A DNA stretch of 64,000 nucleotides, taken from an uncultured Chthonomonadaceae bacterium (GTDB lineage Bacteria; Armatimonadota; Chthonomonadetes; Chthonomonadales; Chthonomonadaceae). The position numbers and the translations under genes are program-made. The notes under the pieces are model-generated. The model worked only from the letters and a program-made list of their open reading frames with translations, made no database searches and was not told the origin of the DNA. Below are positions 57,936-59,290 of the stretch, piece by piece. The number at the start of each line of letters is the position of its first letter. Within the stretch, counting starts at the first letter, position 1. The stretch is taken from positions 1 through 64,000 of the forward strand of contig CAWFQB010000011.1 in NCBI GenBank assembly GCA_963817895.1, given 5' to 3'.

Positions 57936-58011
57936 AGGAGAGGAGTCCTTCCGATAGCATTGCGCCACGCCGGGAGTTTGTACCCTCAACCCTGGCCCTT
58001 GTATCTTATAA

Positions 58012-58185
58012 GTGTGCTACCCTAATGGTGGTAGTACTGCCGCAACAGGATAGATCGTCGGCCCTTGGGTCGCATTGCAGACCGTGGAGAAGCCCGGATC
58101 GTCCTGTTGCTTCCCGACCAGCCCGTACAGTTGCCGGGGCTATCCAAGCCCGTATCTTGCAAGGCAGGGCCATGTCAGGAAAACC
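58012..58185 (+). ncRNA. Predicted bridge RNA (ends approximate)
   Basis: 5' hairpin; target loop closed by GCAACAGGA/TCCTGTTGC containing GGCCCT and GGAGAAG; donor loop containing ACAGTTGC and TGCAAG. Confidence 0.8.
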
Positions 58186-58201
58186 TTACAAGGAGCCGAA
58201 T

Positions 58202-59149
58202 ATGTCTGCTGCGGACGTGTTTGTCGGTATTGATGTTAGCAAAGCCCATTTAGATGTTGCCATTCCTGCCGCGACGTTGGCCTTTCGCGTGAGCAATGCG
58301 GAGAGCGGGATTGCCGACTTGATTGCCCGCCTGTCTCCGCTTTCACCTACCTTGATTGTTCTGGAAGCAACAGGCGGCTTGGAAGTGCCTGCGGCCACGG
58401 CATTAGCCTTAGCCGGTTTGCCTGTTGCCGTCGTCAACCCGCGTCGCGCTCGTGACTTTGCCCGGGCCACCGGCCAACAAGCCAAGACCGACCCGCTGGA
58501 TGCGAAGGGGTTGGCGCACTTTGCGCAAGCCGTGCGCCCCACCCCGCGCCCCTTGCCGGATGCGCAGGCGCAGGAACTGTCGGCCTTGTTAGCGCGGCGC
58601 AAGCAGCTTGTCGAGATGCTCACGATGGAGCAGAACCGTTTGCATAGCGCGCCTGCCTGCTTGCACACCGGGTTGAACAAGCACATCGCCTACTTGAAAA
58701 CCGAACTGGCACAAGCCGACGACGATCTGCATACCCATCTTAAGAGCAGTCCCGTCTGGCAAGCCGCGGATGAGGTACTGCAAAGTGTGCCGGGTATAGG
58801 CAAAACCGTCTCGCTGACCTTGTTGGCCGAACTGCCCGAACTCGGACACCTCAATCGCCAGCAGATTGCCGCCCTCGTGGGGGTGGCTCCGTTCAACAGC
58901 GACAGCGGCAAGCGACGCGGGGTCCGCACCATCTTCGGCGGGCGGGCCAGAGTACGGGCGGCCTTGTATATGGCGGCTCTGGTAGCGACCCGGCATAACC
59001 CGCGCATCCGCGATTTTTATGAGCGCCTGCTCAAAGCGGGCAAGGATAAGAAGGTCGCTCTAGTGGCCTGTATGCGCAAATTGCTCACCATCCTCAACGC
59101 GATGCTCAAGCAGCAAAAAAAGTGGAACTTTTCTGCGTCCGAGGCTTGA
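58202..59149 (+). CDS. IS110 family DEDD recombinase/transposase
   Basis: VGIDVSK, LEATGG, KTDPLDA (DEDD); [24 protein letters not shown]. Confidence 0.96.
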
Positions 59150-59290
59150 CTTTTAAGACAGTTGCTTCTCCCTGATGCCCTCTCTGCGTTCGGAGGGAGA
59201 AGGGAGCGAAGGCGGAAGATGAGCGCGTTAATTACAAACTTTATGAACCTGTTCATCTTTCATTTCACAGGCAAAACTACCACACTCACT

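Follow-up and report, generated by a model that had tools for sequence, protein, structure and literature searches.

The window, by which we mean the whole stretch of 64,000 nucleotides analysed here, most probably (at roughly 0.92) carries an autonomous IS110-group insertion sequence of the IS621 type, with a split promoter and a predicted bridge RNA, whose natural target would be one subfamily of the intergenic REP-like hairpins of the host, about ten further well-matched sites standing empty. That the element is of the IS621 kind is, taken alone, of similarly high probability, and follows from the protein domains, the catalytic residues, the intact copies of the repeat, a 99.5-bit match to a covariance model, the covariation of guides and flanks, the handshake bases and the promoter geometry. 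The bridge-RNA layout of IS621 type that the original prediction had proposed agrees with the IS621 model, as do the four guides, the catalytic residues and the junction promoter; the prediction made no mention of the multicopy REP-like target or of the better fit of the guide to intact copies of the repeat.

The IS110 element and its REP-like target

The element, whose features all lie on the plus strand, extends from a CT core at 57998-57999 to a CT core at 59165-59166, and every coordinate previously given for it was reproduced by the coordinate check. Its limits are independent of the guide matches because they can be read from uninterrupted copies of the host repeat: the copies spanning the junction have a single CT, at the place of the left core, against a CT at both ends of the element. 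The left end measures 202 nt, compared with 15 nt from the stop codon to the right core for the right end. The first positions of the left end (58000-58009) hold the right donor (58000-58004), the -10 box (58002-58007) and the left arm of a 4-bp subterminal inverted repeat; the right-donor start recurs in the homologs, where it was also the search anchor. At the right end (59146-59164), a -35 box (59146-59151) overlaps the stop codon and precedes the left donor (59158-59164). When the two ends are joined, the predicted -35 box lies 17 nt from the -10 box in a sigma-70-type geometry, and a -35-like box was found at the same place, 7 nt before the donor, in 56/74 homologs, a count inflated by the kinship among the loci.

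The recombinase gene (58202-59149) codes for a protein of 315 residues, within the 300-460 residues of the IS110 family, with both PF01548 and PF02371 over their cut-offs. The residues D11, E55, D97, D100 and S235 align with the catalytic residues of IS621 (DEDD and the conserved serine), and Y256, M257 and L260 with its hydrophobic wedge Y264, M265 and M268, the IS621 residues being those named in the available text of Hiraizumi et al. 2024 (PMC11208158). Among solved structures, only the recombinases of ISCro4 and IS621 were related at E <= 0.001. The protein belongs to a large clade of at least 7,994 related proteins (7,994 of the 8,000 candidates scored, with E up to 1e-60), and the closest other proteins share 90% and 76% identity with it. 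One database protein, P0001, equals the window recombinase except for N in place of the third catalytic aspartate, at position 97. As judged from the letters, the element appears intact, as had been proposed, with reading frame, catalytic residues, promoter boxes and stems unbroken.

The element is single-copy in its own assembly, which is 81% complete and in which no further copy was found by blastn, tblastn, PF01548 search or the RNA model described below. In a plasmid collection, 685 records matched partially at 60-80% identity, none of them covering 80% of the element, and contigs from two DNA runs covered it in part, with no joints and no piece across the element.

The flanks of the element are the two halves of a REP-like repeat. 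The left half lies at 57975-57997 and ends with the left target 7-mer (57991-57997); the right half of the hairpin lies at 59167-59215 and starts with the right target (59167-59171). An unoccupied second unit on the minus strand (59280-59350, with its hairpin at 59293-59330) forms with the interrupted one a BIME-like inverted pair. Of the 13 HSPs obtained with the rejoined flanks, 10 crossed the junction in intact copies elsewhere in the genome, the best with 97.1% identity over 70 nt. The family is intergenic, with 168 strict-pattern matches in the assembly, several subfamilies and some inverted pairs, and related copies are present in two related genomes, G001 and G002. The occupied 14-mer is unique in the genome; 17 sites are one base off, and 11 of these share the same base change. 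This commoner variant fits the left guide better (5/7 and a U-G wobble, with ten such copies in hairpins) than the occupied site does (4/7 and one wobble), so that the left guide looks tuned to one subfamily of the repeat, of which the occupied site is a one-base variant.

In the sister genome G002 we found a homologous uninterrupted module, made of a gene tail and an inverted repeat pair, with 265 of 335 aligned bases identical. This module, on G002:C49, is syntenic with contig C4 of the host assembly and not with the window; a strictly orthologous empty site was not found, the flanks of the element matching separate contigs of G002. A short gene, which by its look we take to code for a DUF559/Vsr-type endonuclease, lies on the same G002 contig between two inverted repeat pairs (L183, about 7300-7800).

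The predicted bridge RNA and the covariation of its guides

The bridge RNA is predicted at 58013-58175, with both ends inferred, from the model match and from a 5' hairpin seen in the fold at about 58014-58040. The target-binding loop (58042-58110) consists of a basal stem, in which 58042-58050 is the exact reverse complement of 58102-58110, and an inner hairpin, on the evidence of the fold and of homolog pairs; the 5' hairpin and the loop-1 stem, earlier folded by eye, thus both appear in the predicted fold. The two loops carry the left target, right target, left donor and right donor guides in the order of IS621. The motif GGCCCT (58060-58065) had been proposed as left target guide, and its location holds, but it is better read as part of a 9-mer of 7 nt plus core at 58057-58065. 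The right target guide GGAGAAG (58086-58092), of 5 nt plus core, is followed by a handshake dinucleotide (58093-58094). The left donor guide lies at 58127-58135, with the left donor motif ACAGTTGC at 58127-58134. For TGCAAG (58158-58163), proposed as right donor guide, the coordinates are correct but the pairing of U58158 is doubtful: that position varies among the homologs, while 75 of the 78 homologous guide sets keep the AU at 58154-58155. As in IS621, the right donor guide is therefore probably discontinuous, made of A58154-U58155 and CAAG at 58160-58163, and is followed by its own handshake dinucleotide (58164-58165).

Taken singly, the first three guide motifs occurred in 11.8%, 1.4% and 0.2% of dinucleotide shuffles of 58007-58201, and in none of 100,000 shuffles were the left target, right target and left donor motifs held together; the 4-mer of the right donor guide was present in 69% of shuffles. 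Folding energy alone was not significant (z -1.57 and z -1.17), and the minimum-energy fold partly pairs the guides. A covariance model, of the kind the original prediction had suggested as a check, was built from 50 homologous left ends with the window excluded; its full length matched 58037-58173 with 99.5 bits, against 8.6 for the next best match in the window. RNAalifold on the 50 homologs gave 15 pairs, 12 of them changed on both sides; 12 pairs belong to the basal stem of the target-binding loop, most with two-sided changes, and the inner loop-1 hairpin and the loop-2 basal stem were not recovered in this alignment. Among Rfam models, 6 matches were obtained at E up to 5, none reaching the gathering score. 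On 42 genomes of the family, the RNA model gave one further strong match, in G020, and a weak one. In the host genome it gave three more matches of 20-22 bits, unconvincing on reading; two identical segments in a duplicated region, G000:C2:219796-219911 and C4:84049-84164 (L187, L188), score 22 bits.

As the host genome has one copy of the element, the flank test within the genome was replaced by a comparison of homologs. We examined 99 homologous loci and the window; L004-L013, L028, L029 and 52 of 55 viral loci were left out as distant or fragmentary. The left end could be aligned in 95 loci; we dropped L025, which is truncated, and L065, whose right end meets a contig edge, and kept 78 unique guide sets, the window not included. 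The right target guide agreed with the flank at 320 of 360 positions (n=72, 47 perfect), compared with a mean of 110 and a maximum of 157 in 20,000 permutations, and the left target guide at 266 of 434 positions (n=62), compared with a mean of 165 and a maximum of 200, these permutation numbers overstating the significance because the homologs are kin. The agreement with the flank bears out GGAGAAG as the right target guide. Matches in the right flank numbered 68, 65, 66, 63 and 58 at the first five positions, then 15 and 14, so that the guide reads exactly five bases. For the left guide, the best of two registers was taken in real and permuted data alike. Left donor and guide are identical in 70 of the 74 homologs, including 12 whose donor has changed; since donor-like motifs served as anchors for the ends and the loop, this comparison is in part circular. 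The handshake base C58093 is complementary to the donor G at position 7, as are its counterparts in 72/74 homologs, and G58164 to the target C at position 7 (59/61, window included); kinship among the loci inflates these handshake counts, as it does those of the guides.

Individual loci vary the scheme. L059 has a right guide and a 5-nt right flank both identical to those of the window, and L002 combines the left guide of the window with a different right guide that its flank matches. The register of the left guide is ambiguous by one base in C-rich targets such as that of L002: the alternative, 58058-58066, fits L002 and a commoner repeat subfamily, and fits the occupied site less well. L002 (G020:C241, reverse strand) is the closest genomic relative, with 68% protein identity and the same left target guide; its left end measures about 920 nt, some 700 extra nt separating the terminus from the bridge RNA. 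In the planctomycete homologs L017-L023 and L026 the left end measures about 245 nt and includes an extra long hairpin ahead of loop 1; their donor has changed, and the guide has changed to match. The covariation of guides and flanks in homologs thus supports the proposal that the element may be reprogrammable.

By analogy with the IS621 mechanism, the element would be excised, or copied, as a circle, and joining of its ends would build the donor and bring the two promoter boxes to their 17-nt spacing. From the rebuilt promoter the left end would be transcribed into a bridge RNA about 160 nt long. Dimers of the recombinase on loop 1 would pair with the 14-bp target (7 + CT + 5) and those on loop 2 with the donor, and in the recombinase tetramer the conserved serine and the DEDD centre would exchange strands at CT between the donor and a copy of the repeat.

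Known relatives and alternative readings

According to the available text on IS621 (PDB 8wt6; PMC11208160, PMC11208158), both systems have DEDD and serine residues, a hydrophobic wedge, a CT core, a long left end with a bridge RNA, the guide order LTG-RTG-LDG-RDG, a discontinuous right donor guide, handshake bases, a junction promoter and insertion into REP-type repeats. The IS621 protein is distant from the window recombinase (E 2.5e-37), the left arm of the donor and the target differ, and the right end of 15 nt after the stop codon with its -35 box over the stop is unlike that of IS621. The right target guide of the window element pairs 5 nt past the core, whereas the IS621 guide is described as four bases including the core; longer right target guides in orthologues and the targeting of REP sequences are both stated in the accessible part of Durrant et al. 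2024 (PMC11208160). The best match among solved structures is ISCro4, or IS622 (PDB 9t56; E 5.4e-39), which, as far as the accessible text of Perry et al. goes (10.1101/2025.05.14.653916), shares a 14-bp target and donor, the CT core and handshake guides and is 88% identical to IS621; the window element is part of another clade, large and environmental. ISPpu10 and ISPpu9 of Pseudomonas putida are described, in the available parts of 10.64898/2026.03.19.712850 and PMC12288879, as IS110 elements aimed at REP repeats, often inverted pairs, and according to the former source the left target guide of ISPpu10 has a U-G wobble, as does that of the window element. They have another repeat family and another position of the hairpin, and the likeness drawn here is one of description. 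The IS1111 group has by definition a long right end and subterminal inverted repeats of 7-17 bp; the window element differs from it by its right end of 15 nt and its inverted repeat of 4 bp.

That the system class is known, as had been said, was borne out: the accessible supplement of Durrant et al. 2024 (PMC11208160) has 424 occurrences of this donor 14-mer in file 5 and 188 in file 4, and the left ends aligned in the latter show the same loop-2 motifs. The presence of the 14-mer in published covariation data means that the type of element was already known. In the searchable part of that supplement, the target 11-mer, the left-guide 12-mer and a 19-nt scaffold stretch of the window were absent, and the right-guide 12-mer matched synthetic IS621 library oligos only. 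Literature searches with the 9-nt left donor plus core and IS110 found nothing, and those with the name of the host phylum found no paper mentioning it. This member may therefore be unpublished, though its type is published. Its value as a tool is modest, as one more compact orthologue (315 residues, a 15-nt right end, a natural 5-nt right target guide); its donor differs from that of IS621, making it a candidate for a bridge-recombinase screen, and it illustrates cleanly a guide tuned to a single subfamily of intergenic repeats in the host.

The anatomy could be read correctly and the element be inactive or silent here, a single stranded copy with a drifted target. It is present once despite about ten well-matched empty sites, the occupied site has one mismatch more than the repeat consensus, and the near-identical P0001 has N at the third catalytic aspartate; the window protein nonetheless retains all five catalytic residues, nothing in frame, promoter boxes or stems is broken, and IS621 too excises inefficiently, according to the available text of PMC13626964. 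We regard an inactive copy as rather unlikely. Base pairing might also be necessary and insufficient, the hairpin of the target DNA acting as a second gate in the way reported for ISPpu10 in the accessible part of a preprint (bioRxiv 10.64898/2026.03.19.712850). A strong DNA hairpin arm does have the core at its base, and a right flank of similar repeat class is found in 9 of 74 homologs, but the guides of the other 65 match without such a flank, and the ISPpu10 stem-loop, as described there, is placed 5' of the core and pairs with the left target, whereas the present one is 3' and includes the right target; such a gate appears improbable.

We consider it next to impossible that the guide-like matches arose by chance in a left end that is merely a promoter and a leader. 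The motifs are indeed short and the z-scores of the fold weak; this reading is contradicted by the covariation across homologs, and the shuffles and the model match also speak against it. The IS621-type element with a guide tuned to one repeat subfamily is accordingly the reading that we retain.

A lone donor-core-target junction on contig C4

A second junction of the exact left donor, CT core and right target was found in the host assembly at G000:C4:301286-301299, and extends over the right half of a REP-like hairpin (301286-301313; L191, L039:3788-3815). Neither a recombinase gene nor a bridge RNA or -35 box was found near it. On its left, the junction shares its DNA with G002 up to the core and one base; the left arm in G002 matches at 6/7, and the sequence with which G002 continues matches the right donor at 3/5. 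On its right, similarity to other repeat pairs starts at the core, so that the similarity switches from G002 to the repeat pairs within the core and one base. Among 439 oriented hairpin matches, 27 were without the left half of the repeat on both sides, and only the C4 junction among these had 7/7 donor matches, the next best having 4; a rough post-hoc estimate of chance is 27 x 0.25^7, about 0.002. The host assembly has the pattern twice, and the 41 other genomes of the family lack it.

The C4 junction may be a natural chromosomal scar, in which a cryptic donor, still present in G002, was joined at CT to a REP-like target; we hold this reading tentatively, at somewhat short of even odds. The scar would have arisen directly in trans or by deletion of a former copy of the element. 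A microhomology of 3 nt could explain the join without any recombinase. By its right side, the C4 repeat belongs to a subfamily whose left arm mismatches the left guide of the window element, so that a scar requires a half-match or another element; half-match behaviour is described in vitro in the available parts of 2026 preprints (further 2026 preprints cited are 10.64898/2026.08.31.748434 and 10.64898/2026.08.14.744561). In a loose search, the reciprocal junction (left half of the repeat, core, foreign DNA) was not recognised among the matches listed. The downstream partner of the junction had no match in G002 and non-syntenic matches in G001, and G002:C53:200000-239999 held no hairpin of the C4 type; a simple local deletion is, for lack of this synteny and hairpin, unsupported. 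If the scar reading is true, the recombinase reshuffles the host genome between pseudo-donors and repeats with no element left behind, such scars are systematically minable, and the site documents RNA-guided chromosome rearrangement in nature at a place free of the element.

Some other features were noted in passing. A second, unrelated transposase (DDE_Tnp_4 and HTH_Tnp_4) lies 2.8 kb downstream of the element on the minus strand, at 61951-62850 of the window. The minus-strand frame 54471-56447, which we take to be transketolase-like, has a C-terminus that seems to be continued in an overlapping frame (54370-54870), possibly by a frameshift or a sequencing error. On many contigs of the host assembly, numerous intergenic runs of degenerate 7-nt tandem units were seen, often as adjoining blocks of different units.
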